From contig PHBW01000013.1 of assembly GCA_002840715.1 (NCBI GenBank), positions 203,445 through 235,444 of the forward strand: a stretch of DNA of 32,000 nt, read 5' to 3'. Position 1 is the first letter of the stretch. The number at the start of each line of letters is the position of its first letter. This DNA comes from Chloroflexi bacterium HGW-Chloroflexi-4. Its GTDB lineage: Bacteria; Chloroflexota; Anaerolineae; Anaerolineales; Anaerolineaceae. Positions 3-22,472 of this stretch are shown piece by piece. The notes under the pieces are model-generated. The model worked only from the letters and a program-made list of their open reading frames with translations. It did not search any database and had not been told where the DNA came from. The translations under genes were made by a program, and so were the position numbers.

Positions 3-170
3 GGCGGCGCCGTTTCGGCGGAACACGGCATCGGCAAAATCAAAAGTCATTTCTTGCCTCTCATGTTCACCCCTGCCCAAATTCAGCAAATGCGCAGTGT
101 CAAACAAGCCCTCGACCCTCAGGGATTGCTGAACCCCAATGACATCTTCTCCGCAGAGGTGTACCCATGA
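3..170 (+). CDS. FAD-linked oxidase, GlcD / D-lactate dehydrogenase family (C-terminal 55 aa only; 5' end outside window)
   Basis: Frame 3 reads GGAVSAEHGIGKIKSHFLPLMFTPAQIQQMRSVKQALDPQGLLNPNDIFSAEVYP*. This matches the conserved C-terminal SAEHGIG...K.A.DP.G.LNP block of FAD-linked oxidases. Its TGA overlaps the etfB ATG (ATGA at 167-170). Confidence 0.75.
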   Translation, partial: GGAVSAEHGIGKIKSHFLPLMFTPAQIQQMRSVKQALDPQGLLNPNDIFSAEVYP

Positions 171-967
171 AAATAGTTGTCTGCATCAAACAGGTTCCAG
201 AAGTCACCAATGTGCAGGTGGACCCCGAAACTGGCACTCTGATTCGTGAAGGTGTGAAATCCATCCTTAATCCGTTCTGCGAATATGCGCTGGATCATGC
301 CGTGCGTCTCAAGCAGGAATTTGAAGATGTCTCAATATCAGTCATCACCATGGGGCCGCCACAGGCAAAAGATGCACTGCTGCGCTGCCTCGAGCTTGGT
401 GCGGATGATGGCATTCTGGTCACAGACCGCAAATTCGCCGGCGCGGATTCATGGGTGACCGCGCTCACCCTGGCCGAAGCCATCCGATTCACCGTGCCTG
501 ATTACGATCTGATTCTGGTAGGCAAACAAGCCATTGACGGCGATACCGCCCAGGTGGGGCCAGAAATCGCAGAAATCCTTTCGCTGCCCCAGATCACATA
601 CGGCATCGAGGTCGGATTGAGCAGTTCAAAGAAACAGGTCAGAGTGAAACAGGAAGTCGAACGCGGATACGAAGTGGTTAAAGCCACCTTGCCTGCCCTT
701 GTCACTTGCAGCAAGGGTGAAGTGGTTCGGCGTGCGCCTTCCTTTGAAGAGGTGCTCACCGCCCGCAAGAAACCCATCCGCAGCGTCACCGCGGATGACC
801 TGGGCATCCCCGTTGAAGAATTAGGGCTAAAAGGATCGTTCACCCAGGTGGTGAAGGTCTTCCCCCCTCCCGAGAAGAAATGCGGAAAGCTGCTGCAAAA
901 CCTTGAACCAGACCAGGCAGCAGTTGAGATTTTCAACTATCTCAAAGACAAACGTTTTATAGAATGA
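167..967 (+). CDS. etfB: Electron transfer flavoprotein beta subunit (bifurcating-type signature)
   Basis: 266-aa ORF. MKIVVCIKQVPE at the N-terminus and LILVGKQAIDGDTAQVGPEIAEIL are ETF-beta hallmarks. I associate the DGDTAQVGP form with FAD-binding (bifurcating) EtfB rather than AMP-binding mitochondrial-type ETF. Translationally coupled to the upstream oxidase gene. Confidence 0.9.
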   Translation: MKIVVCIKQVPEVTNVQVDPETGTLIREGVKSILNPFCEYALDHAVRLKQEFEDVSISVITMGPPQAKDALLRCLELGADDGILVTDRKFAGADSWVTALTLAEAIRFTVPDYDLILVGKQAIDGDTAQVGPEIAEILSLPQITYGIEVGLSSSKKQVRVKQEVERGYEVVKATLPALVTCSKGEVVRRAPSFEEVLTARKKPIRSVTADDLGIPVEELGLKGSFTQVVKVFPPPEKKCGKLLQNLEPDQAAVEIFNYLKDKRFIE

Positions 968-992
968 TTGGCCGAAAAGGAAGAGACGACTG

Positions 993-2186
993 ATGTTAAT
1001 CATTGATCATGAACGCTGCACATTGTGTAAACTTTGCATCCGTAGCTGCCCTTTTGGCGCATTTTTCGTTGAAGAAGATCTGCTCAAGGTGAATGAAAGC
1101 TGCACCCTGTGCGGCACCTGCACAAACGTTTGCCGATTCAACGCATTAACCATAGAAAGAAAATTAGCCTCCAGCGAAGAACTAGCCAAGTATAAGGGCG
1201 TCATGGTCTGGATCGAACTGGACGATGCCGCAGCACTCCCTAAAACCAAAAAAGTATCTCTCGAGTTGCTCGGCAAAGGAAGGCAGCTCGCTGATGACCT
1301 GGGCGAAGAACTTATCGCCGTGGTGCTGACAGATTCAGAAGAGGTTGACTTGCCATCACTTGGTTACTTCGGTGCGGATCGTGTCATCCTGTGCCGTCAT
1401 GATCTGCTCAGGACCTATTCCACCGATGGATTCACAAGCGTGTTGTGTGCAGTTATCTCATCCAATAAACCGGCAGTCGTGCTCTACGGCGCCACCCCGC
1501 ACGGACGTGATCTCGCCCCGCGCGTGGCCGCCCGCCTCAAACTTGGTCTGACAGCCGATTGCACCGCACTCGAAATCGATGATCAAAGGCAACTGGTTCA
1601 AACCCGCCCGGCTTTCGGCGGCAACATCATGGCTTCCATTATTACACCCTATAACCGACCACAAACTTCCACCGTGCGCCCCAACGTCTTCCCCATTCCA
1701 TTGAGAAATGAAAATCATCAAGCTGTGATTGAGATCTTCAGCGTAACCTTAAACAAAGCCGCCATTCGCACCAGGGTGGTTGAAAAGAATTATATTGAAG
1801 AGGGCTGTGAAGAAAGCATTGAAAATGCCCGTGTGTTGGTCGCAGCCGGCAGGGGCTGCCAGAAAGCCTCAAACCTTGAACTCTTGCGCACACTCGCCTG
1901 TCAGTTGGGCGGCGGATTGGCCGGTTCACGTGCCGTTGTCGAACAGGGCTGGATTCCACACACGCAACAGGTGGGGCAATCAGGCACCACCGTAGGCCCT
2001 GACCTCTATATCGCCGCCGGTATCAGCGGCGCCATTCAGCACCAGGTAGGCATGAGCTCCTCAAAGACTATCATTGCCATCAACAAAGACCCTGAAGCAG
2101 CGATTTTCAAGTTGGCGGATCTGGGCGTGGTGGGTGATGCGATTGAAATACTGCCTAGATTATCGAAACTAATTGATAATCAATGA
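993..2186 (+). CDS. etfA: Electron transfer flavoprotein alpha subunit with N-terminal 2x[4Fe-4S]-type ferredoxin domain
   Basis: 397-aa ORF. Cys clusters CTLCKLCIRSCP and CTLCGTCTNVC lie in the first ~50 aa. They are followed by an ETF-alpha core and the C-terminal FAD block GQSGTTVGPDLYIAAGISGAIQHQVGM. A purine-rich RBS (AAGGAAGAG) lies upstream. Confidence 0.9.
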   Translation: MLIIDHERCTLCKLCIRSCPFGAFFVEEDLLKVNESCTLCGTCTNVCRFNALTIERKLASSEELAKYKGVMVWIELDDAAALPKTKKVSLELLGKGRQLADDLGEELIAVVLTDSEEVDLPSLGYFGADRVILCRHDLLRTYSTDGFTSVLCAVISSNKPAVVLYGATPHGRDLAPRVAARLKLGLTADCTALEIDDQRQLVQTRPAFGGNIMASIITPYNRPQTSTVRPNVFPIPLRNENHQAVIEIFSVTLNKAAIRTRVVEKNYIEEGCEESIENARVLVAAGRGCQKASNLELLRTLACQLGGGLAGSRAVVEQGWIPHTQQVGQSGTTVGPDLYIAAGISGAIQHQVGMSSSKTIIAINKDPEAAIFKLADLGVVGDAIEILPRLSKLIDNQ

Positions 2187-2188
2187 AC

Positions 2189-2222
2189 AATAAGGGATGA
2201 TTAAACAAAATCATCCCTTATT
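2189..2222. terminator. Hairpin between convergent etfA and protease genes
   Basis: aataagggatgat (2189-2201) pairs perfectly with atcatcccttatt (2210-2222) around an 8-nt loop. The flanks are T/A-rich, but the T-tract is weak. Confidence 0.6.
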
Positions 2223-2311
2223 GCTTTAAATTTCTTTACTAGATATATATTTCCAGATCTCTTTGTGCTTGCTTTCAAAGAAACAAAAAACTGTCTTTGC
2301 GTCGTACTTCG

Positions 2312-5300
2312 CTAGTAACCTTTCGGCGCGGTAAATTTTATAGCACTTGAATATGGACTGCAACGGTTATCAACACAAGATTGCACGAAATAATAGTATG
2401 TTTTTGAATACGCCACGGTATCAATGAGACTATTGGTTATTGGTAATCCTACAATAACTTTTGATCCACGCGATGATGTTGACCGAGATAATATGTATGA
2501 TGTTGCACCATCTTGGATTGGCCAGGTTACAGCAGCATAAGTCATACCGGGCTCCACCGACAACAAATCAGTAGTTGCATTCACAGTCAATCCAGATAGT
2601 TTTGCAAGTCCCTTCCATCCTGTATCTGTTCCATATAAGGCACCACAATTTCCATTGTTACAGGCAGTCACCCAGTAATAGTAAATGTATCCCGCTGCAA
2701 TTCCAGCATCGCTAAAACTTGTTTTCGAAGTAGAACCGATAATAACCTTTTCATCGTCAATCGAAGAAGCACGATAAACATTATATTGCGTAGCATTCCT
2801 CACTTTTGGCCAACTGAGTTGAACATAATTTGTATACTTGCCATCACTAGCAGTCATTGTTGCAGGTGATGTCAATAATCTGAAACCAGGTTCCGAAGTA
2901 CTGTAATTGCTGCAATTCTTGTCAACACAACTCGATACCCAATAATAATAAATTGGACCGGCTGCAGCCCCATAATCAATGTAACTTGTATTACTTGTTG
3001 TGTTTATGAGGGATTTTTTTCCTGTCAAACTTGTGGATCTATACACTTTATAGTATGAAGCATCAGTTGCAACATCCCAGATCAAATCAATTGATGACGT
3101 CGAAGTACCATCACTGGCTATCAAATTTACAGGAACACTAAGACTTCTCCAGCCAGTTGTTGCGGAACTGAAAATTGAACAATTCTGTTCAACACAAGCT
3201 TTGAGCCAATAGGTATAGGTTACACCAGGTAAAGCAGAATTATCTTCATAACTCAAACTTTCTTCTACAGTTCCAATTAACTCTTTTGTACCGCTTGTAC
3301 CGATTGCGCGATATACCTCATAATTTGATGCGCCAAAGACTGGCGGCCATGAAACCAAGATCATATCCAAAGAGGAATTATCGGTTGCATTCAATTTGCC
3401 TGGTTTTGATAACCCCTTCCAACCTACCGTCGTTTTTCCATCCAAAGAACTACAAATAGAGTTCCGACAAGCTCTAACCCAATAATAATAGTTCTTGCCG
3501 GGAAGCCCCGTTTTATCTTTGTATGATGTTGGAATACTGGATCTGGTCTTTGTGATTATCGCTAGGGCAGAATTAGATAACGGATTGACATCAATACTTT
3601 CGGTGCGATAGATTTCATAGTAGACGGTATTTGAGATGGATGTCCAACTCAGAATGACTGCATCCAACGCCGATCCGAGACTTGCCGTGACCGTTGGTGA
3701 TTCAAGAATTCTAAAACCTGAATCAGAATTACTGAGATCGCTGCAGACTTCTCCTGAACATGCAGCCACCCAATAGACAAACATATCACCACTTGTTGCC
3801 CTTGAATCCAAATATGTATTCTCTGAAACCATTCCCAGAAGTATTTTTGTACCAGTTAATGATGTTGCTCTGTAAATCTGGTAATTATCAACACCCGGCA
3901 CGGTATCCCAATTAAGATCAATTCCTGCTGATGACGTGCCATCTGTTGCTGAGAAGTTCGATGGAGTTGGAATCTTCATCGTAACTTTCAAATTTAATCG
4001 AGCGCTGCCAATCAGACTATATGAGGCTACTTCAACATAATAGGTTTGATCACGAACCACTGCTAAATTGTTAATTTTGGAAGCAACAGAAGATGGGTAT
4101 GAGTAATCATCGTTACATGCTAGAGAGGTCAAACTACCTCTGGCCCCAGTCCAAACTCCCAACACGGTATCATAATTCGAATCTGTCGTGTCAATATTTA
4201 ACAGACCATCAAATAAGGGTTGATAAATAAACCAGACTGTTTTATATCCCATTCCGTTTGTGCAAGAAAAAATGGGGTCATCATAAGCTCTTGAAGCATT
4301 ACTGACATCAACAGTGGTTGTAAAGGAAAGCGAAGATGGCAAAATTATTTGTAGTGGAGTATCAATGTTGTCATTCGCGACCGGGACAGCAGTGGCCGTC
4401 GGCGTCGGTGTGGCAGTTTGAGTAGCCGTATTGGATGGCGTTGGAGTTATGGTAATTGTTGGCGACGGACCACTGGTCGGAGTATTCGTTATACTGGGTG
4501 TTACTGTTGCACTTGTGGTTGGTGTGGCAATATTTTCAGGCGCATATACAACATAATTCGCTGCATATCCGACATTCGAGATTCCCCACCTTATCCTCAT
4601 ATATCCGCTTTCGCCCCAACCTGTTCCCCACGAGTTACGCAAGACCCATGATTGAGTAGCATCATCCCAACCGGTTAAGAGGATTGCGTGATTAATTCCA
4701 CCATTGCAAGAACTTTTTTCATCTGTCGTAAAAACTCCACTTCTATAAGATGAAAAACCGGGTCCAACACATATTGCTGCTGCAACCGGTCCATAAGTTG
4801 AAATCACTGTTTTTATCTGATCGACAGATGGAATTGCCCAATCACCAGCAATTGAAAACCAGTTTGCCAATTTATACGGATGGTTGTAAGGTACTGAACA
4901 TGAACCATTGCTCGCTGTATATGGAAAAGCACTTTCTAGAACCGCCCCAGCTTGGGTTTGCGGATTGATGAATTTATTAAAGTGATAATTATTGGCAAAC
5001 CAACCACCATTGCAAGAATACCCATCATTATTACAACTAACCAGATATTGTTCGGATAAGTCCACATTTCCGCCACCTTGAATCTTAATTGCAGACTCAA
5101 AAACACCAACGGTAGCAAATGCCCAGCAACTTCCACAAGAACCCTGATTTCTTACCGGCGTTAGCCAGTTTGTACTATCTTCACTTCTCCAATCAAAAGT
5201 GGGTGGCAAAGTGCCCATTGATTGAGTATCTGGTGGAACAACCTCAAGGCCACTTCCGGTCGTTGATGTTGATTGAGAAGAATCAACAGGTTCAGTAAAA

Positions 5301-6328
5301 TCTAGAACCTCACTTGTCAAATTAGAACCAGCATTAATAGTGATATGTGTTGTTGCAGATTGCGACAACCAAGGTCTTCCATAAAAGAGCGAGATTGTCG
5401 TGGGTCCGTTGTTCAAACCTAAGAATTGTATGGTCTGCACACTTGGGGCGCCAACCAAATTGTACTTTTGATCAAATTCAGTTGTCGTCAGAAGTTGAAG
5501 TTTTGACGCATCATAGTTTTCTACGTCCCATATAAAACCAGTTGAGGGATTTGATTCCAGCAACAGTGGAAAGACTTGCCCTGCTATCACGTCTCCTGAA
5601 ATATCAAGGATAACAGCCCCACCCAACATGTCTATTTGTTCATTTAAGTCGCCAAACATAGTCTGACGAAATTGTTCCAAACCATCTTCGCCTGCCACCA
5701 TAACCTTAAAATTAACAAATCCACTAGTCTGTGACGCCATCGCGACGTCGGTAGTAATTTCTTCATCCTGAATAGTTGAATTTAATTCCGCTTCCACATT
5801 ATTGGATGTACTTGTAATTCCGCCTTCTGAACTGACTTCCTGGTTTGAAACTGGCAAAAGAATTTCAACACTCCAAGCTACTTCATCAGAACCAATTTCA
5901 GAAGTTTGTGTGCCGAATGGGTCTAAAGTTCCAGTCAATGTAGGGGTCGTAGTTAACGTTGTTGTTGAAGTAACCGTCGGTGTATCTGTATCCGTCATGG
6001 TCACCAACGGTGTTTCGGTCGTCAAATTATCAGCTGTTGCAGTTAATTCAAATCCAGAATCGATTGTTTCTGTTACAGTCATGGTCATCGTGGGTGTGAT
6101 CGATTCTCCTGATGACGTTGGTTCAATTTCATCACCTGTAATGGGTAACGCTAATGTTAAAACCGGGTATAAAGCTGGTGTCTTTTGAATGTTAGAAGAA
6201 GAAAAAAGCAATGAAGGCTGCTTGTTTGAAAATGAAAAATAAACACTAAAAACAAGGCTGATGGCCAAGGTATAAGCCGATATCAAAAGTATTATTTTTG
6301 GTGATAATTTTTTCATCGTTTCCTTCAC
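2312..6328 (-). CDS. Secreted or membrane-anchored multidomain papain-family (C1A) cysteine peptidase: signal anchor, Thr-rich region, chagasin-like I42 domain, C1A catalytic domain, Thr/Pro linker, PPC-like domain, six FN3-like repeats
   Basis: 1338-aa ORF with an N-terminal hydrophobic segment (aa ~10-33). C1A motifs are NQGSCGSCWAF (Q395, C401), NHAILLTGW (H547) and LRNSWGTGWGESGYMRI (N565). The chagasin triad is NPSTGFIW, LVGAPS and YGRPW. The RBS GAAGGA lies upstream. Confidence 0.88.
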   Translation of the reverse strand: MKETMKKLSPKIILLISAYTLAISLVFSVYFSFSNKQPSLLFSSSNIQKTPALYPVLTLALPITGDEIEPTSSGESITPTMTMTVTETIDSGFELTATADNLTTETPLVTMTDTDTPTVTSTTTLTTTPTLTGTLDPFGTQTSEIGSDEVAWSVEILLPVSNQEVSSEGGITSTSNNVEAELNSTIQDEEITTDVAMASQTSGFVNFKVMVAGEDGLEQFRQTMFGDLNEQIDMLGGAVILDISGDVIAGQVFPLLLESNPSTGFIWDVENYDASKLQLLTTTEFDQKYNLVGAPSVQTIQFLGLNNGPTTISLFYGRPWLSQSATTHITINAGSNLTSEVLDFTEPVDSSQSTSTTGSGLEVVPPDTQSMGTLPPTFDWRSEDSTNWLTPVRNQGSCGSCWAFATVGVFESAIKIQGGGNVDLSEQYLVSCNNDGYSCNGGWFANNYHFNKFINPQTQAGAVLESAFPYTASNGSCSVPYNHPYKLANWFSIAGDWAIPSVDQIKTVISTYGPVAAAICVGPGFSSYRSGVFTTDEKSSCNGGINHAILLTGWDDATQSWVLRNSWGTGWGESGYMRIRWGISNVGYAANYVVYAPENIATPTTSATVTPSITNTPTSGPSPTITITPTPSNTATQTATPTPTATAVPVANDNIDTPLQIILPSSLSFTTTVDVSNASRAYDDPIFSCTNGMGYKTVWFIYQPLFDGLLNIDTTDSNYDTVLGVWTGARGSLTSLACNDDYSYPSSVASKINNLAVVRDQTYYVEVASYSLIGSARLNLKVTMKIPTPSNFSATDGTSSAGIDLNWDTVPGVDNYQIYRATSLTGTKILLGMVSENTYLDSRATSGDMFVYWVAACSGEVCSDLSNSDSGFRILESPTVTASLGSALDAVILSWTSISNTVYYEIYRTESIDVNPLSNSALAIITKTRSSIPTSYKDKTGLPGKNYYYWVRACRNSICSSLDGKTTVGWKGLSKPGKLNATDNSSLDMILVSWPPVFGASNYEVYRAIGTSGTKELIGTVEESLSYEDNSALPGVTYTYWLKACVEQNCSIFSSATTGWRSLSVPVNLIASDGTSTSSIDLIWDVATDASYYKVYRSTSLTGKKSLINTTSNTSYIDYGAAAGPIYYYWVSSCVDKNCSNYSTSEPGFRLLTSPATMTASDGKYTNYVQLSWPKVRNATQYNVYRASSIDDEKVIIGSTSKTSFSDAGIAAGYIYYYWVTACNNGNCGALYGTDTGWKGLAKLSGLTVNATTDLLSVEPGMTYAAVTWPIQDGATSYILSRSTSSRGSKVIVGLPITNSLIDTVAYSKTYYYFVQSCVDNRCSPYSSAIKFTAPKGY
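2315..3973 (-). other. Six tandem ~90-aa FN3-like protein repeats, each with a conserved Cys pair, aa ~786-1338
   Basis: Recurrent pattern: W..V.GA..Y.(V/I)YR ... G..YYYWV.AC....CS....... G(W/F)(K/R). It is seen at YQIYR, YEIYR, YEVYR, YKVYR, YNVYR and YILSR. The repeats are divergent at DNA level. Confidence 0.7.
3980..4366 (-). other. PPC-like (pre-peptidase C-terminal type) beta-sandwich domain, aa ~655-783
   Basis: The pattern ...YKTVWFIYQP...DTTDSNYDTVLGVWTG...LACNDD...QTYYVEVASY resembles the SVWY..F.P / YDTVL.VY / CNDD / TYYI.V layout of PPC-type domains. Confidence 0.55.
4385..4528 (-). other. Thr/Pro/Ser-rich low-complexity linker, aa ~601-648
   Basis: Translation reads ATPTTSATVTPSITNTPTSGPSPTITITPTPSNTATQTATPTPTATAV. 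Confidence 0.9.
4538..5206 (-). other. Segment encoding the papain-like C1A catalytic domain, aa ~375-597
   Basis: The catalytic Cys codon TGC at 5126-5128 sits within SCGSCW, checked on the DNA. The His and Asn motifs lie downstream. Confidence 0.88.
5363..5623 (-). other. Segment encoding the chagasin-like (peptidase inhibitor I42) domain, aa ~236-322 (approximate bounds)
   Basis: All three I42 signature loops occur in order: NPSTG (nt 5537-5551), VGAPS, and RPW (nt 5369-5377, checked on the DNA as AGA CCT TGG). Confidence 0.75.
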
Positions 6329-6555
6329 TCTAGACTACTAATAAAGTTCTATCTATTTTTATTATAGTAATTATCGGCAGTTCTATCCTTACAACTAGTT
6401 AATAAAAATAATATTTTTGTAAACTTAAAGTTTAAGTAAATTGATGAAAAATAACTAAAAAGATTGAGATTAAACTATGGTTAGTAATGAATCACTTTAT
6501 TTGATTTGACCGTTATAATAAGCCTGTACATCAAACTCCAGTAGAGGCTATGTTA

Positions 6556-8115
6556 ATGTCAGAGTCAACCCCGTCAGAAGCAAATTCCACAAAAACAGTG
6601 CTTTTCTTAAACCCTGCCAAGGGGCTTGTTACTTTTCTAGTGGTTGTTTTGCTCTTATTAGGTTTTGCGGTAAGGTTTATAGATTTCACCGACCTGCCAC
6701 TTGATTTTGCCGCAACCCGCCAACTGCACTCGCTTATCATGGCCAGAGGCATCTACTACCAGATGGATAGCCCGGATACGCTTTCAATGCCGCAAGATAA
6801 ACGTGCATACGGCATTAACACCGGCAACGCCGAAACAAGAATTGAACCCCCCATCATGGAGTATCTTTCAGCAATTACCTATCGTTTGATTGGGAAAGAA
6901 AACATTCTGGTGCCGCGGCTGTATTCGATGCTCTTCTGGGTGCTTGGCGGGATCCCCCTGTTTCTGTTAGCTCGCAAACTTATTAATATCAACGGTGCTT
7001 TGGCATCACTTGCCGCTTATCTTTTTATTCCGTTTGGGGTTTTTGCCAGCCGAAGTTTTCAACCTGATCCATTGATGGTCTTGTGCATTATCTGGGCTTT
7101 ATATTTTCAAATAAGCTGGTCCAAAAGTTCAACCCTCAAAAACGCAATTTTAGCCGGACTTTTTACCGGCATCGCACTTTTCGTGAAAGCGCCATCTGCA
7201 TTTTTTGTGGGTCTTCCTTTTGTTGGTTTGGTTCTTTCAAAAGGGTTCAAAACCTGGATTAAAAATCCGCAAATCTATATCATGGCTGCACTGGCCTTGC
7301 TTCCTGCAATACTTTTTAATGCTTTAAGTGCCACAGTTGGTGGCAATGCTGGTTCCATATTTGGCGCCAGGTTTTTCCCGGATTTATTTATTGACCCGAA
7401 TTGGTATTCCGATTGGCTGCAAACTGCCAAATCCGTCACAGGGTATTTTCCATTGATTCTTGGTGTGCTGGCTATCTTTTTGATTAGGGTGAAAAAGGAT
7501 CGGATTTTCTTTATATGTCTCTGGTTGGGATATGTGCTTTACGGCTTTACATTTGCTTACCACATTTACACGCATAATTATTACCACCTCCCGTTAATTC
7601 CTATCATCGCGTTGGGATTCGGTTACTTTTTTGCAGTCATTTTTGAAAAACTTGAAGGAATAAATACCCAATGGATTTCACGCACTTTCATTGTGTCAGT
7701 CTTTTTAGTTTCACTTGGCATCTGCGTTCAAGTCACCCGTGGAACCTTGATCACTAAAGAATATCGTCATGAAGCCAAATATTGGTCTGACCTTGGTGAA
7801 AAAATTGGTGGCAACGCTTCTGTAATCGCCCTGACCCATGACAATGGTTATCGTATTAGTTATTGGGGATTTGTGAGTCCGAGTCTTTGGCCGACTGCCG
7901 GAGATAGAACTATAAAATCTTTGGTTGGCGCTACAGATCCAGAATTTGTTCAATTATTCAAAGAATTAGCTTCAGGCAAAGACTACTTTTTGGTAACCCT
8001 GGTTGGTGAGTTCGAAGCACAACCTGATCTTCACGATTACTTATTTGCCACTTATCCGTACCACCAAGGGGATGGTTATTACCTTTTTGACCTTCGCCAA
8101 AAACTTTCACAATAG
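6556..8115 (+). CDS. Polytopic membrane glycosyltransferase, GT-C fold (family 39/83-like, ArnT / PMT_2 type)
   Basis: About 11-13 hydrophobic helices precede a soluble ~120-aa C-terminal domain. The layout and N-terminal loop resemble ArnT/PMT-type enzymes. The start is placed at the second in-frame ATG (6556, AGAGG 8 nt upstream); the ORF track starts at 6550. The family call rests on architecture, not on a strict catalytic motif. Confidence 0.6.
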   Translation: MSESTPSEANSTKTVLFLNPAKGLVTFLVVVLLLLGFAVRFIDFTDLPLDFAATRQLHSLIMARGIYYQMDSPDTLSMPQDKRAYGINTGNAETRIEPPIMEYLSAITYRLIGKENILVPRLYSMLFWVLGGIPLFLLARKLININGALASLAAYLFIPFGVFASRSFQPDPLMVLCIIWALYFQISWSKSSTLKNAILAGLFTGIALFVKAPSAFFVGLPFVGLVLSKGFKTWIKNPQIYIMAALALLPAILFNALSATVGGNAGSIFGARFFPDLFIDPNWYSDWLQTAKSVTGYFPLILGVLAIFLIRVKKDRIFFICLWLGYVLYGFTFAYHIYTHNYYHLPLIPIIALGFGYFFAVIFEKLEGINTQWISRTFIVSVFLVSLGICVQVTRGTLITKEYRHEAKYWSDLGEKIGGNASVIALTHDNGYRISYWGFVSPSLWPTAGDRTIKSLVGATDPEFVQLFKELASGKDYFLVTLVGEFEAQPDLHDYLFATYPYHQGDGYYLFDLRQKLSQ

Positions 8116-10782: not shown

Positions 10783-11472
10783 ATGAAAAAGATTTTAGTA
10801 ATAGATGATGACACATTAATGCGGCGAAGCATGGCTTTCAATCTCGAACAAGCCGGCTATAAAGCTTTTACGGCAGCCAATGCGGAAGATGGGCTTGAAA
10901 TCGTCCGAAAAACCCCGCCCGATCTGGTCTTGCTCGATATCGGTCTGCCAGAGATGGATGGTCTTGATGCCATAAAGCAGATCAAATCCATTTCGCCGAT
11001 TCCGGTCATTTTCGTCACCGCCCGTCGCCGCGAGTTGGACGAAGTGGTAGGTCTCGAACTTGGCGCCGACGATTACATCACCAAACCTTTTGACAACGAC
11101 GTGTTGCTTGCCCATATTAAAGCCGTACTGCGCCGTTCGATACCGGCAGCCGAGATTACAACTTCAAATCCTATTCAAGCGGGTGCCCTGTATATGGACC
11201 CCATCACCCATACCGCCAAATTGGCAGATAAAAACCTCGAGTTGAGTCCTCGCGAATTTGACCTGCTCTACCTGCTCGCCCGAGACCGCAATCAGGTGAA
11301 GTCAACCACAGAGATTCTTGCCCAGGTTTGGGGTGCGGAGTATTATGGTGAACCACAGGTGGTTTATGTGCACATCCGTTGGTTGCGCCAAAAACTTGAG
11401 CTTGATCCAAATCACCCAAAATTGATTCTCACCGTACGCGGCGTGGGGTATAAATTTTCTGGAGGCGAATAA
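10783..11472 (+). CDS. OmpR/PhoB-family response regulator (receiver + winged-helix DNA-binding domain)
   Basis: MKKILVIDDD, LVLLDIGLPEMDG and ITKPF form the receiver. SPREFDLLYLL...VRGVGYKF forms the winged helix. Confidence 0.9.
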   Translation: MKKILVIDDDTLMRRSMAFNLEQAGYKAFTAANAEDGLEIVRKTPPDLVLLDIGLPEMDGLDAIKQIKSISPIPVIFVTARRRELDEVVGLELGADDYITKPFDNDVLLAHIKAVLRRSIPAAEITTSNPIQAGALYMDPITHTAKLADKNLELSPREFDLLYLLARDRNQVKSTTEILAQVWGAEYYGEPQVVYVHIRWLRQKLELDPNHPKLILTVRGVGYKFSGGE

Positions 11473-12905
11473 TGTTTCGCACCATTCAGCGCAGAATGCT
11501 TTTTGGTCAGATCATCGTTTTATTGCTCGTCATGCCGTTAATGGGCGTTCTTTTGATCTTTGGCATTGAGAGCAGCTTCTTGATTCCCAAATTTGCCAAT
11601 ACACTGCTGGGGGATGCCAGACTGCTGGCTGAGATCAGCAGTGCCGAATATGAATTGTGGGGCAATCCCTTCCTCATCGAAAAGTTGATCTCCCGTGTTC
11701 AACTGGATCCCTCAATAAAAGTCATGTTTCTAGATTCTGCCGGCAGACCTCTATACTCCACCGATCCCGCGGATTACACAAATAACATAACAATCAATTC
11801 AACTGGCATCATAAGTGCACAAAGCGGGCAGGAAATAGCCCTGACCTCCTATTCCATCATCCGCATCAAAGACACCTATGTAGATGTTTACGAACCGGTT
11901 TTGGATTCAAGTTTTTCAGTCATCGGCATTGTCAGATTGACCTACCGCGTGGAATCACTGTATCAAATTTTTGATGAATTGCGTTGGCAGATCGCTGTCA
12001 TTGTATTAATCGGACTCATCCTCAGTGGTTTCATCAGCGCCTGGTTGGCCATGCGCATTAGCCGGCCGATCACCAAAGTGACCAACGCCATTTATGATCT
12101 GGCTGTTGGCAGAAGTCACATACCACTTGAAGAAACCGGTCCCGAAGAATTGCAATCTCAGGCGCAAGCTGTCAATTTTCTGGTAGCCCAGTTGGATACA
12201 CACGAAAAATCGAGACGCCAGTTGCTGGCAAACCTGGTACACGAGTTGGGTCGCCCGCTGGGTTCCATCCGTTCTGCCATCCATGCGCTTGAAACTGGCG
12301 CTGACAAAGATCCAGCGTTATACAAAGACCTCACCACCGGTATGGATGCCGAAACCATGCGCCTTCAACGCCTGCTAAACGATCTTTCGCACCTTTATGA
12401 CCAATCAGTAGGTGCGCTGGAACTTGACGTTCAACCCGTCAATATTCACAAGTGGCTGCCGGGAGTATTGCGGCCGTGGCAGGTTTTAGCCCAGGATAAA
12501 GAGCTCACCTGGATTGAAAACCTTGTTCCCGACAGTTCATTGGTCAAAATGGATCCCAACCGCATGGCTCAGGTGGTGGGCAATTTGTTAAGCAACGCCG
12601 TAAAATATACCAAACCAGGCGGCAGCATCAATGTTTCAACGTTAATAATGGAGGACAAATTCCATCTCACCATTCAAGACAATGGCGTTGGCATTCAACC
12701 TGATGAAATTAAAAAAGTATTCCTTCCCTTCTTCAGGGGTGAACAGGGCCGCCGCATCAAACAAGGCATGGGGCTTGGACTTTCCATTGCCAGAGATTTG
12801 ACCAAAGCCCATGGCGGCACGCTTGATGTCACCTCTCAACCAAACGGCGGCAGCACCTTCACTGTTCGATTGCCAATCGACTTAGAGGAGCCAGGAAACG
12901 AATAA
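11472..12905 (+). CDS. Membrane sensor histidine kinase (2 TM, extracytoplasmic domain, HAMP, HisKA, HATPase_c)
   Basis: TAATG overlap with the regulator gene. Motifs present: H-box LVHELGRPL, N-box LLSNAVKYT, G1 DNGVGI and G2 GMGLGLSI. Confidence 0.88.
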   Translation: MFRTIQRRMLFGQIIVLLLVMPLMGVLLIFGIESSFLIPKFANTLLGDARLLAEISSAEYELWGNPFLIEKLISRVQLDPSIKVMFLDSAGRPLYSTDPADYTNNITINSTGIISAQSGQEIALTSYSIIRIKDTYVDVYEPVLDSSFSVIGIVRLTYRVESLYQIFDELRWQIAVIVLIGLILSGFISAWLAMRISRPITKVTNAIYDLAVGRSHIPLEETGPEELQSQAQAVNFLVAQLDTHEKSRRQLLANLVHELGRPLGSIRSAIHALETGADKDPALYKDLTTGMDAETMRLQRLLNDLSHLYDQSVGALELDVQPVNIHKWLPGVLRPWQVLAQDKELTWIENLVPDSSLVKMDPNRMAQVVGNLLSNAVKYTKPGGSINVSTLIMEDKFHLTIQDNGVGIQPDEIKKVFLPFFRGEQGRRIKQGMGLGLSIARDLTKAHGGTLDVTSQPNGGSTFTVRLPIDLEEPGNE

Positions 12906-12944
12906 CTCCTTTCAAAGAATAGACCCTTAATTCCAAAGTTTTGC

Positions 12945-12978
12945 AAAAGAACCTTCTCACCACTAAGGTTCTTTTTTT
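12945..12978 (+). terminator. Rho-independent terminator after the kinase gene
   Basis: The stem gaacctt (12949-12955) pairs with aaggttc (12965-12971) and is extended by A/T pairs. A T7 run at 12972-12978 follows. Confidence 0.6.
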
Positions 12979-12981
12979 ACG

Positions 12982-13001
12982 CCTTAAGGTCACCTTAAGG
13001 T
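12982..13001 (+). promoter_or_regulatory. Tandem direct repeat CCTTAAGGT-n2-CCTTAAGGT overlapping the putative -35 of htrA (candidate response-regulator binding site)
   Basis: CCTTAAGGT occurs at 12982-12990 and 12993-13001, 11 bp apart. A third TAAGGT half-site lies at 12964-12969, 21 bp upstream. The candidate -10 TATGAT at 13013-13018 has a poor -35 (TCACCT) 17 nt upstream. Confidence 0.4.
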
Positions 13002-13045
13002 TGCTATAACCTTATGATAAAGACAAACCAACATGCAAATGGTAT

Positions 13046-13068
13046 CCTCCAATCAACATTATTGGAGG
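13046..13068 (+). promoter_or_regulatory. SD-sequestering hairpin in the htrA 5' UTR (RNA-thermometer-like)
   Basis: CCUCCAAU (13046-13053) pairs perfectly with AUUGGAGG (13061-13068) around a 7-nt loop. The 3' arm contains the only Shine-Dalgarno (GGAGG), 7 nt before ATG 13076. Confidence 0.45.
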
Positions 13069-13075
13069 TATAAAC

Positions 13076-14746
13076 ATGTCCACACGAAAAAAAACTTCAC
13101 TTTCCATCATTCTCATTTTGGCGTTTTCGCTTTCTGCTTGCGGCATCATAACGCCTGATGCCACCCAGGCTGTTCCGCCCCAGGTTGAACAGACCGAATT
13201 GCCACAAGAAGAAACTACAACAACGAACAATTCGGCACCTGTGCTTGAATCGCTTTCAGCTTACCAGGCAGCACTCGAAGAAATCTACAACAAGGTCAAT
13301 CCTTCGGTTGTCAACATTCAAGTGATGCAAAGAGTTCAAATCTCAAATAACACTAACCTTGAGAACCCTTTTGCCAATATCCCTGGTTTTGATTTCTATT
13401 TTGGTTCTCCATCCACACCTGACCAGCAAGAATCAACTCAGGTTAAACAAGCCCTCGGTTCAGGTTTTGTTTGGGACGAAGAAGGTTACATCGTGACAAA
13501 TAACCATGTTGTCGCAAACGCTGACAGGATACAAGTCAAATTCTCGGATGGCACGATTGCCAATGCCAAAGTTGTTGGCACAGACGTTAACAGTGATTTG
13601 GCTGTCATCCAATTGGTTGATTTTTCTGGAGAGCTTAATCCTATTACATCATCCGATTCGACCGAGGTTAGAGTTGGGCAAGTGGCGATCGCCATTGGTA
13701 ACCCCTACGGACTGGAAAACACAATGACTGTCGGAATTGTCAGTGCTGTAGGTCGATCGCTGCCGACAGATCAAACCTCTGCAACCTCTTATACCATCCC
13801 GGATATCATCCAGACCGATGCCCCCATCAACCCAGGTAATTCTGGCGGTGTGCTGGTCAATGATCAAGGTGAACTAATTGGTGTAACGGCAGCCATCGAA
13901 TCCTCCACCGGTTCAAATGCCGGCATCGGCTTTGCCATTCCATCCAGTACGGTCAACAAGGTGATACCCGCTTTGATTAAAACAGGCAAATATGAACACC
14001 CATACCTCGGCCTCACCGGCACTACATTGACCCCTGACCTGACAGCGACCATGGATCTGGAATCCGATTTGCGTGGTGTTTTGGTGATCGCAGTTGCGAA
14101 CGGTGGCCCTGCAGATAAAGCCGGATTGATAGGCAACAGCAAAGAAGTCAACCTCAATGGCATTACAACTAATGTCGGTGGAGACATCATCACTGCCATC
14201 GATGAACAATCGCTCAATTCAATGGAAGATTTGATCTCTTATCTAGCAAGTCATACCGAAGTCGGGGATTCAGTTAAACTCACCATCCTGCGTGATGGCG
14301 TTGAAAAAACCCTTGAAGCTACTGTGATTGCCCGCCCAGGCAGCATTGAGCAGCCTGCCATCAAGAGCAATCCATCATCACAAGACGATGTTTCATCTTT
14401 AGCATGGATGGGAATCTCCGTTACTCCACTTACCTCTGCTCTTGCACAAGAAATGGGATTACCCCAAGAACAAAAAGGCCTTCTGTTGCAGCAAGTTGTC
14501 TCAGGCGGACCGGCTGATCAGGCTGGATTAATCGGCAGTTATAAACCAGTCATTATTAATGGTAAACGCGTCTTAATTGGCGGTGATATTATTACAGCCA
14601 TTGAAGACCAAGCAGTCGCTGCTATCGAAGATCTACAGGCAGTGATTTCCACCAGGTTGTCCGGCGACACCGTGTCATTGACACTTATCCGCAACGGCCA
14701 GGAATTATCAATAGCGGTTACTCTGGCAGAAAAACCGGCCAGTTAA
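13076..14746 (+). CDS. htrA: HtrA/DegP-family serine endopeptidase (S1C) lipoprotein with two PDZ domains
   Basis: Lipobox LSACG. Triad contexts are TNNHVV (His), DLAVIQ (Asp) and GNSGGVL (Ser). Two PDZ-like segments are present (GVLVIAV..GGPADKAGL and GLLLQQV..GGPADQAGL). Confidence 0.92.
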   Translation: MSTRKKTSLSIILILAFSLSACGIITPDATQAVPPQVEQTELPQEETTTTNNSAPVLESLSAYQAALEEIYNKVNPSVVNIQVMQRVQISNNTNLENPFANIPGFDFYFGSPSTPDQQESTQVKQALGSGFVWDEEGYIVTNNHVVANADRIQVKFSDGTIANAKVVGTDVNSDLAVIQLVDFSGELNPITSSDSTEVRVGQVAIAIGNPYGLENTMTVGIVSAVGRSLPTDQTSATSYTIPDIIQTDAPINPGNSGGVLVNDQGELIGVTAAIESSTGSNAGIGFAIPSSTVNKVIPALIKTGKYEHPYLGLTGTTLTPDLTATMDLESDLRGVLVIAVANGGPADKAGLIGNSKEVNLNGITTNVGGDIITAIDEQSLNSMEDLISYLASHTEVGDSVKLTILRDGVEKTLEATVIARPGSIEQPAIKSNPSSQDDVSSLAWMGISVTPLTSALAQEMGLPQEQKGLLLQQVVSGGPADQAGLIGSYKPVIINGKRVLIGGDIITAIEDQAVAAIEDLQAVISTRLSGDTVSLTLIRNGQELSIAVTLAEKPAS

Positions 14747-21102: not shown

Positions 21103-21332
21103 TTAATCTTTCTGTTTTTGCGGGGTTGATCCATTAATTTCGTCAATAATATCATGTTTAGACATCTTTGATGTTACTCCCTCTATCAACCAATCATCAG
21201 ATCCGAGTTTTAAGTTGCACACCCGCCTTTCATTAGAATTTTATTGAGCCTATTGAAAAATAATTAAATACCCTTAAAATGATATTAATTGTCTATATTA
21301 TGCCTTGATTCACGACTTATATGGAGGTGGAT

Positions 21333-22472
21333 ATGAAACAATTATCAAAGAAAATTTTTGTGGCTGTCATAATTTTTGCTTTTGCACTTACATCCTGCAA
21401 CCTTCCCAAACCCAACGCTGCTATCAATACACCCAATGCTGATGTTATTCAATCCGCAATTGCCACTGAAGCTCCAATTATTGCAGAAACTGCTGCTCCG
21501 ATCCAAGCCACCGAAGCGCCCACTGCTGAAGTTGTGCCGACGGAACCCCCTCAAAATATTGAAACAGTGGTTCCGATTGTTCATCTGATAAACCCATCAG
21601 ATACGGTCTGGAACCCGGATCAAATCACCACAGACTGCAACACAGGCGTCCGGATGCCGGCAGGCACAACGCAAGTGATCATTTCAGGTTGTGATTACTG
21701 GAACCGCGAAATGATTGAACGCCCGGCTGACAGTGCCACCGGCACCTATGTGCCATCGCTGGATATTATTTGGTCACAGGCTGGCAAACTCGAACCTTGG
21801 ATATTTTTGAAAATAAATGTAACCAATCTGGCAGACGCCCCCAAAACCCTCAAAGCGGGTTTTGAATTGGACCCCGATCTCGACAGCCGCGGCGAATTTC
21901 TGCTGACCTCAAATCTGCCCACTTCAACCACCTGGAGCACAGACGGCGTCCAAGTATGGCAGGATACCAATCAGGATAACGGTGGCACAACCGCTTTCCG
22001 ATATGATCAAAACACGGGTGATGGCTACGAAACGCTGCTCTTTGACAGCGGCGTAGGGGATGATGCCGACCTGGCCTGGAGCCGCATATCGCCTAAAAAC
22101 GCAAATAATATTGAGTTCGCGTTTAAAGCTGCCGTGCTGCCGAATCAAAAGGTGTTTGGTTGGTGGTCATGGGTTGGGCTGCAAGAGCTCACTGCCGATA
22201 AATTCGAGCTCGTGGATCGTGCAGACGAAAGCCAAACCTGGAATATCGATAATTCCTGCTCGTGGATCTTTGGCACCAAACCAAAACCGGACCAGTTGAT
22301 AAATCTATGCGCAGTTGCAGAACCGACGCCTACACCTGCTCCGACCACGCCAGCAGGATCTCCCTGCGTCGTTAAACCCTGCCGTTTCCTGCAGTACTTT
22401 GATACAGAAACTTGTTCTTGTAAACCCTTCATCATCTTTATCCCGACGCCAACACCAATCATCATTTATTAG
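21333..22472 (+). CDS. Secreted lipoprotein of unknown function with a Thr/Pro- and Cys-rich C-terminus
   Basis: Signal peptide plus lipobox (FALTSC). GGAGG lies 5 nt upstream of ATG 21333. I recognise no family motif. Confidence 0.6.
   Translation: MKQLSKKIFVAVIIFAFALTSCNLPKPNAAINTPNADVIQSAIATEAPIIAETAAPIQATEAPTAEVVPTEPPQNIETVVPIVHLINPSDTVWNPDQITTDCNTGVRMPAGTTQVIISGCDYWNREMIERPADSATGTYVPSLDIIWSQAGKLEPWIFLKINVTNLADAPKTLKAGFELDPDLDSRGEFLLTSNLPTSTTWSTDGVQVWQDTNQDNGGTTAFRYDQNTGDGYETLLFDSGVGDDADLAWSRISPKNANNIEFAFKAAVLPNQKVFGWWSWVGLQELTADKFELVDRADESQTWNIDNSCSWIFGTKPKPDQLINLCAVAEPTPTPAPTTPAGSPCVVKPCRFLQYFDTETCSCKPFIIFIPTPTPIIIY

Follow-up and report, generated by a model that had tools for sequence, protein, structure and literature searches.

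A chagasin-type I42 domain in the propeptide position of a large papain-family protease from a Chloroflexota bacterium

Introduction

What does an inhibitor domain do when it is built into the kind of protease that its family inhibits? The question is raised by a gene in a 32,000-nucleotide stretch of DNA (hereafter, the window) from Chloroflexi bacterium HGW-Chloroflexi-4, a member of the Anaerolineaceae (contig PHBW01000013.1, positions 203,445 to 235,444 of the forward strand). A single open reading frame (ORF) of 1338 codons encodes a papain-family (C1A) protease that also contains a domain of the chagasin family (MEROPS I42). The original prediction for this ORF, which left its strand unstated, proposed that the I42 domain sits in the position of a propeptide and acts as a built-in latency module. 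We find that the ORF lies on the minus strand and that the protein is probably an extracellular C1A endopeptidase zymogen plugged in cis by its own chagasin-type domain. Residue numbers throughout count from the GTG codon that opens the ORF, as in the original prediction.

Results and Discussion

An I42 domain occupies the propeptide position of a complete C1A protease

The Pfam model Inhibitor_I42 (PF09394) matches aa 249-328 with an E-value of 6.6e-15; its score of 55.6 bits exceeds the cut-off of 27.2. The three loops of the domain read N260-P-S-T-G264...W267 (L2), L291-V-G293-A-P-S (L4) and Y316-G-R-P-W320 (L6). When the I42 segment was compared with PDB sequences using phmmer, it matched amoebiasin-2 (3.2e-9), ICP (1e-7 and 5e-7) and chagasin (8e-4), and its NPSTGFIW, LVGAPS and YGRPW segments align residue for residue with the NPTTG, LVGAGG and RPW loops of the solved amoebiasin-2, ICP and chagasin chains. 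AlphaFold2 models aa 239-332 as an all-beta, Ig-like sandwich with a predicted local distance difference test score (pLDDT) of 94, and a structure search with the model of the pro-region returned amoebiasin-1 (6cjz) as its best match (probability 1.00; template modelling score (TM) 0.60 by target length; E=3.9e-3). By profile, loops and fold, the domain belongs to the chagasin family, as had been proposed. It should be noted that L4 reads G-A-P here, compared to the G-x-G-G of free chagasins. A word-indexed homologue search with the I42 domain alone gave no matches.

The protease downstream of this domain is equally clear. Pfam Peptidase_C1 (PF00112) covers aa 374-593 (E=2.7e-50, 171.9 bits), and the four catalytic residues that had been named, Q395, C401, H547 and N565, can be read directly in the sequence. 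A structure search placed the catalytic domain at TM 0.82-0.90 (by target length) to mature chains such as ervatamin and cathepsins K and S; chains of cathepsin C are among its best sequence matches. Counterparts of the papain cysteine pairs C22-C63 and C56-C95 are found, together with an additional family-conserved pair, C520/C541, and all three pairs fit an extracellular enzyme.

Both halves of the fusion are strongly conserved. In an alignment of 66 fused relatives, G264, W267, G293 and Y316 of the I42 loops are invariant, while N260 is kept in 59, R318 in 63 and W320 in 61, the other five having Phe. On the protease side, Q395, C401 and H547 are found in all 66 proteins and N565 in 65. Because the loop residues and the catalytic Q, C and H are conserved together, both partners appear to have been kept functional. 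A subgroup of the fused proteins (P0001 and P0008, from locus L002 and relatives) has N-L-S-T-G for N-P-S-T-G and R-Q-P/V-F for R-R-P-W with its catalytic residues intact; judging from these substitutions, the plug in this subgroup may be weakened or retuned.

Classical C1A zymogens carry an I29 propeptide. As originally stated, none is present in this protein: Inhibitor_I29 (PF08246) gave no Pfam match even at E<=1. Its place is taken by the I42 domain and by a second domain described below. That I42 occupies the propeptide position is supported by a close C1A relative at locus L024, which lacks I42 (its catalytic domain is 57% identical) and carries a different short segment at the corresponding position.

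The pro-region is bipartite and is joined to the protease by a constrained linker

Alignment of full-length relatives revealed a conserved domain of ~80 residues immediately N-terminal to I42, which the original prediction had missed. In 12 aligned proteins, G213, G216 and Q219 never vary and W152 almost never does. AlphaFold2 gives this domain a beta-alpha-alpha-beta-beta-alpha topology at pLDDT 93-97, and when aa 145-335 were modelled together (pLDDT 94.3; predicted template modelling score (pTM) 0.87), the ferredoxin-like domain was packed onto the I42 sandwich. For this half of the pro-region, the structure search returned weak ferredoxin-like matches alone (PII-like SbtB, SnoaB and designed ferredoxin folds). 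Since a conserved ferredoxin-like domain precedes I42, the pro-region is bipartite, a feature first recognised in this analysis.

A two-domain pro-region could also serve mainly as an intramolecular chaperone that helps the catalytic domain to fold, with the loops acting as a weak or incidental inhibitor. Subtilisin (I9) and cathepsin (I29) propeptides are both foldases and inhibitors, and the ferredoxin-like domain falls, on its weak structure matches, within the broad fold class of the I9 propeptides. The two roles are not exclusive, and the near-invariance of precisely the three loops that contact the protease points to binding in the cleft. We therefore regard a mainly chaperoning pro-region as improbable, while a chaperone role could coexist with that of a plug in a cis-inhibited zymogen.

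The Ser/Thr linker that had been noted between I42 and the protease is also conserved. It contains a short strand at aa 342-344 in the AlphaFold2 model of aa 225-605 and a motif with the family consensus D-L-S-N-P-x-P, which in the window protein takes the form D343-F-T-E-P347; the equivalent of P347 is found in 58 of the 66 fused relatives. The W320-to-C401 spacing falls within 66-90 residues for 65 of these proteins (median 78), with a single outlier at 105. The length of the linker is thus constrained across the aligned sequences, suggesting that it is more than a plain spacer. This constraint, too, is new in this analysis.

The I42 domain is predicted to pack against the protease in a fixed frame

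We used AlphaFold2 to predict the structure of I42 and C1 together (aa 225-605, close to the aa 230-600 that had been suggested). The model is confident, with pLDDT 92.3 and pTM 0.91. As C1 makes up only about 60% of this construct, a pTM of 0.91 places I42 in a fixed frame relative to C1, and implies that the packing of the two domains is fixed in the predicted structure. V292, which precedes the invariant glycine of L4, is assigned as an isolated beta-bridge when C1 is modelled along with I42 and has no partner when C1 is left out. In the I42+C1 model, bridge residues are also assigned at G441-G442, which correspond to papain Gly65-Gly66. V292 stands at what we take to be the equivalent of chagasin's S2-binding Leu in published complexes. 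In the model, these bridges would fit a substrate-like pairing of L4 with the Gly-Gly strand. The pLDDT of the loops was the same with and without C1 and is therefore uninformative here. A structure search with the I42+C1 model gave single-domain C1 matches alone, with TM by query length <=0.52, and no solved chain covering both I42 and C1 was among the structure matches listed.

These results bear on the proposal that I42 acts as a latency module. A single frame for I42 and C1 is predicted with confidence, and the proposal gains indirect support from the conservation of the loops, the 66-90-residue spacing, the pTM of 0.91 and the V292 bridge; the packing would presumably be one of loops in the cleft.

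A fixed frame could also be expected if the mature enzyme kept its I42 domain permanently, as a modulator or exclusion domain that shapes specificity or damps activity. Cathepsin C (dipeptidyl peptidase I) offers the precedent: an all-beta domain at the N-terminus of its own chain fills part of the C1A cleft. Chains of cathepsin C are, as noted, among the best sequence matches of the catalytic domain. Along with the inter-domain pTM, the rigid placement of the ferredoxin-like domain on I42 (pTM 0.87), the partly ordered linker with its conserved motif and the lack of an evident processing site would all suit such an arrangement. However, the exclusion domain of cathepsin C, which is retained, does not have the I42 fold and blocks only beyond S2, making the enzyme an exopeptidase. 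To our knowledge, every solved chagasin complex has L2 lying over the catalytic Cys/His. With the L2 and L6 residues conserved in the fused proteins, an I42 domain docked for good would be expected to eliminate activity, not to adjust it, and the strict conservation of the catalytic residues speaks for an enzyme that works free of inhibition. A permanently retained I42 domain is therefore unlikely.

I42-C1 fusions are widespread

The original prediction considered the architecture unusual and suggested a search for catalogued I42-C1 fusions. Such a search shows that the fusion is common and already catalogued in public domain annotation, this protein included. With aa 197-600 as the query, 2718 proteins matched at E<=1e-5; PF00112 and PF09394 occur together in 115 of the top 120. 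Some fused proteins bear the NCBI name 'protease inhibitor I42 family protein' and others 'C1 family peptidase'. All of the 120 best protein matches are <=707 aa long and do not include the 1334-aa product publicly annotated for the window gene (see below); the frequency of long forms was judged from genome loci. Among species-representative genomes, at least 591 stretches encode relatives, and 58 of the 80 best loci extend into the I42 domain. These loci fall mostly in Chloroflexota, including the cultured Levilinea saccharolytica KIBI-1, with others in Desulfobacterota/'delta proteobacteria', Myxococcota, Pseudomonadota and Calditrichota. The closest genome match to aa 225-605 (72%) is in a metagenome-assembled genome (MAG) of an uncultured Anaerolinea, followed by MAGs of Chloroflexia and Anaerolineae. 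A full-text literature search turned up no description or test of a cis I42-C1 protein, although an earlier mention cannot be excluded, and the fusions are apparently experimentally unstudied so far.

Complete fused ORFs are 416 to 1684 aa long (median ~650), which places the window protein at the upper end of a continuous size range. Long forms recur, and I42-C1-PPC architectures recur among them. At locus L001, a 1401-aa orthologue is 49% identical over its full length, with its parts in the same order, the Thr-rich N-terminal spacer included. A protein of 1242 aa from a Sterolibacterium MAG has the order I42-C1-BACON-PPC, and L. saccharolytica KIBI-1 encodes a 1684-aa protein (L016:5656-10707) with the order I42-C1-Flg_new_2-C11(clostripain)-PPC. 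Only the window protein and the L001 orthologue, among the loci examined, join a PPC-like module to Cys-paired FN3 repeats. As the giant forms recur with differing C-termini, the I42+C1 core is constant and the C-terminal modules are freely exchanged. Two further observations concern the family. The Levilinea protein places two cysteine protease domains behind a single I42 pro-region, and four of the fetched loci (L005, L012, L021 and L044) each contain two I42-C1 genes, suggesting local duplication of the entire zymogen gene.

A wide distribution is also relevant to the possibility that I42 works in trans, being shed from the cell or exposed on its surface, where it would inhibit papain-like proteases of foreign origin (from competitors, grazers or hosts), so that the protein would be a bifunctional protease-inhibitor. 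Free bacterial chagasin-like proteins such as Cip1 and Cpi1 of Pseudomonas do act on foreign proteases (PMC5014320; bioRxiv 10.64898/2026.06.02.729523). After cleavage of the linker, moreover, the pro-region of the window protein would remain on its N-terminal anchor at the cell surface. What inhibition in trans leaves unexplained is the constrained linker, the strict linkage to C1A in hundreds of genomes and the confident intramolecular packing. As the principal function of the domain it seems quite unlikely, and it could instead be a secondary role alongside that of a cis plug.

A model for cis inhibition and release

The N-terminal hydrophobic segment that had been reported was recovered at aa 12-34, with a Kyte-Doolittle maximum of 2.23 (19-residue window). 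This segment could be a signal anchor or a long signal peptide. A scan of the whole protein found no second transmembrane-like segment. The original prediction had cast the C-terminal FN3-like array as a possible stalk; since the only anchor is N-terminal, the array cannot be a membrane stalk, and this role falls to the Thr-rich N-terminal segment, which had also been noted.

We propose that the hydrophobic segment would export the protein and may tether it, with the Thr-rich spacer keeping it off the membrane. In the two-part pro-region, the ferredoxin-like domain would pack against the chagasin-type Ig-like domain, whose NPSTG, LVGAP and GRPW loops would plug the active-site cleft of the same chain in the way that free chagasin does in trans. 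This plug would silence the enzyme through folding and export. Cleavage within the ~40-residue linker and the subsequent removal or breakdown of the pro-region would then yield the active enzyme; because the sole anchor is N-terminal, such a cut would both activate the enzyme and release it from the cell. The PPC-like module and the six FN3-like repeats would then direct the freed enzyme to insoluble substrates or the cell envelope. We infer the packing of the loops in the cleft, the inhibition, the mode of release of the pro-region and the substrate.

Several points weigh against this model. Contact between the loops and the cleft is deduced indirectly, from pTM and from secondary-structure differences between models. 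Free chagasins bind C1 peptidases at pM-nM, and by analogy a copy held in cis should be very hard to release. Neither a cleavage site nor a release trigger is evident in the protein sequence. The model also does not account for the role of the ferredoxin-like domain. Finally, the G-A-P variant of L4 may, from its sequence, lower the affinity of the I42 domain. With binding as tight as that of free chagasins, the tethered copy would probably have to be degraded or removed by another protease; alternatively, given its L4, it may bind with lower affinity. On balance, we consider that the conserved loops, the constrained linker and the predicted packing make a zymogen plugged in cis the probable state of the protein.

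Comparison with known protease-inhibitor systems

The I42 domain shares with chagasin, ICP and amoebiasin its family (PF09394), its Ig-like beta-sandwich and the positions of its loops (3m86, 2cio_B, 2wgn_B, 2nqd_A). Those inhibitors are free-standing, whereas the I42 domain of the window is fused in cis, N-terminal to C1A; it is preceded by a ferredoxin-like domain, followed by a conserved linker of ~40 residues, and its L4 has L-V-G-A-P in place of G-x-G-G.

I29 (ERFNIN) zymogens such as procathepsins L, K and S and propapain likewise have an N-terminal pro-region directly before a C1A domain with Q/C/H/N and two of the papain disulfides. In contrast to the helical I29 fold, the pro-region of the window protein consists of a beta-sandwich and an alpha/beta domain. 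Blocking would presumably be achieved by a three-loop wedge rather than by a peptide running in reverse, and no acid-triggered release is known for the window protein.

The other I42-C1 fusions, from Anaerolineae, Desulfobacterota, Pseudomonadota, Myxococcota and Calditrichota, share the N-terminal domain, I42, linker and catalytic domain at 38-72% identity. Most differ in being 420-900 aa long and in carrying other C-terminal modules (CBM-like, BACON, Flg_new_2, CE2_N, or C11 in Levilinea saccharolytica). Staphostatin-staphopain pairs, and comparable beta-barrel inhibitors of clan CA proteases encoded in operons, are similar in that a cysteine protease comes with its own dedicated, beta-rich inhibitor against premature activity. 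However, these are encoded by separate genes, act in trans in the cytoplasm and belong to other families (I57 and C47).

C-terminal modules and the chromosomal setting of the gene

The features of the gene and its product are listed in Table 1. The order of parts given in the original prediction, from the single ORF to the C-terminal repeats, is recovered throughout, with one label needing qualification.

Table 1. Features of the protease gene and its product, with window coordinates
Feature	Residues (aa)	Window coordinates	Strand	Basis
Whole ORF, 1338 codons from GTG		2312..6328	minus	ORF calling; stop codon 2312-2314
N-terminal hydrophobic segment behind a Lys-rich start	12-34	6227..6295	minus	sole segment with Kyte-Doolittle value >1.8
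Thr-rich low-complexity spacer, 30% Thr	46-150	5879..6193	minus	composition
Conserved pro-region domain, ferredoxin-like	~151-228	5645..5878	minus	alignment, AlphaFold2, structure search
Chagasin-family I42 Ig-like domain	236-333	5330..5623	minus	Pfam, PDB alignment, relatives' alignment, AlphaFold2, structure search
I42-protease Ser/Thr linker	334-373	5210..5329	minus	relatives' alignment; AlphaFold2 pLDDT 63-87
Papain-family C1A catalytic domain	374-596	4541..5209	minus	Pfam, structure search, alignments
Thr/Pro-rich linker	597-652	4373..4540	minus	composition
PPC / galactose-binding-like beta-sandwich module (putative)	653-785	3974..4372	minus	matches of relatives
Six FN3-like repeats, each ending YYYWV..C-x4-C	786-1338	2315..3973	minus	Pfam, repeat alignment
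Bidirectional terminator-like hairpin		2186..2225	.	separates the protease gene from the convergent ETF-alpha gene at their 3' ends

The catalytic domain is followed by the expected Thr/Pro-rich linker (33% Thr and 18% Pro over aa 600-660) and by the module whose label needs care. Although this module had been called PPC-like, aa 653-785 have no direct Pfam match, PPC is absent from the protein even at E<=1, and a word-indexed homologue search with the domain alone gave no matches. A full HMMER search matched 8198 representative proteins. Six of seven sampled relatives match PF04151 (PPC) and/or PF23759 (GBD_T9SS_assoc), four of them at aligned coordinates, and one (P0133) has a PPC match at E=3.6e-11. 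The label is thus a putative one that holds by transitive homology only. The module has the motif NYDTVLGVW...LACNDD and cysteines C689 and C738. Its repeat family is very large and poorly annotated, with ~20 tandem copies in some proteins of 3000-5700 aa, and Pfam recognises only part of its members.

The six repeats that end the protein are 21-47% identical to one another and have the C-x4-C pair in every copy. They match the FN3-like Pfam model GH85_C (PF21910) at E=2e-19 to 1e-21 (E=9.9e-22 over 5 stretches), and no match to the classical fn3 model PF00041 was found in them. This array may bind substrate or the cell envelope.

With respect to the start of the gene, an ATG at codon 5 (6314-6316) has an AAGGA Shine-Dalgarno-like sequence upstream and is the likely true start. 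Public gene calls begin there, giving a 1334-aa product (window 2315..6316, minus strand) that is recorded from a 792-kb JGI metagenome contig (sample 3300038334) and an ENA contig, and is tagged with Pfam Inhibitor_I42 and Peptidase_C1. An exact-product look-up with the GTG-start version found no match, whereas the ATG-start version was matched. An NCBIfam scan of the whole protein matched no family. Given the terminator-like hairpin at its 3' end and the divergent transcription of its upstream neighbour, the protease gene looks monocistronic.

The neighbouring genes in the window are ordinary chromosomal genes, encoding electron-transfer flavoprotein (ETF) subunits, a GT-C glycosyltransferase, EamA, an aldo-keto reductase, MerR and a two-component system; further along are genes for HtrA, FTR1, an M29 peptidase and others of the same ordinary kind. 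The divergent neighbour is the GT-C glycosyltransferase, of the PMT_2 family (window 6550-8115, plus strand). The long Thr/Ser/Pro-rich linkers of the protease could be sites of O-glycosylation. We considered a functional tie between the protease and this glycosyltransferase and rejected it for lack of support from synteny: the adjacency is present in the source contig (L081) and absent beside the L001 orthologue, whose neighbours are unrelated.

On the other side of the protease gene, window 167-2186 (plus strand) encodes ETF-beta and an ETF-alpha with a ferredoxin domain, which adjoin a FAD_binding_4/FAD-oxidase_C gene in the source contig (L081:7131-10005). This set looks like an electron-bifurcating dehydrogenase/ETF cluster unrelated to the protease. 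At window 10783-14746 (plus strand), genes for an OmpR-type response regulator and a HAMP histidine kinase lie ahead of one for an HtrA-like protease that has two PDZ domains; together they could form an envelope-stress unit. At E<=1e-4, Pfam matches neither of two sizeable ORFs, at 21321-22472 (plus strand, 383 aa) and 27290-28684 (minus strand, 464 aa).

Implications

The idea that a prodomain acts as an inhibitor is old and the I42-C1 architecture has been catalogued, making this an incremental finding. What is of real interest is the bipartite pro-region, the constraint on the linker and the manner in which a tethered, tight-binding inhibitor would be released. If the protease is indeed plugged in cis, latency in the papain family would have evolved at least twice, with unrelated folds, and the question posed would be how an enzyme escapes from a covalently tethered member of an inhibitor family that binds at pM-nM.

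We tentatively extend this to the family as a whole. It is possible that I42-C1 is a second, structurally unrelated zymogen design for papain-family enzymes, widespread in bacteria, in which a chagasin fold braced by a ferredoxin-like domain replaces I29 and release is non-classical, by destruction of the inhibitor or by a helper protease. In the window protein, a single cut would then also detach the enzyme from its N-terminal anchor. Under this design, free chagasins could have originated as prodomains that escaped, much as the CTLA-2 and BCPI inhibitors are related to I29.

Inhibition in cis would also give a natural context to the bacterial chagasins, whose endogenous targets are largely unknown, and hundreds of environmental proteins now named as 'I42 family' could be annotated as protease zymogens rather than as inhibitors. 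Anaerolineae are abundant in digesters and sediments, and the I42-C1 proteins are candidates for extracellular enzymes that degrade protein there.

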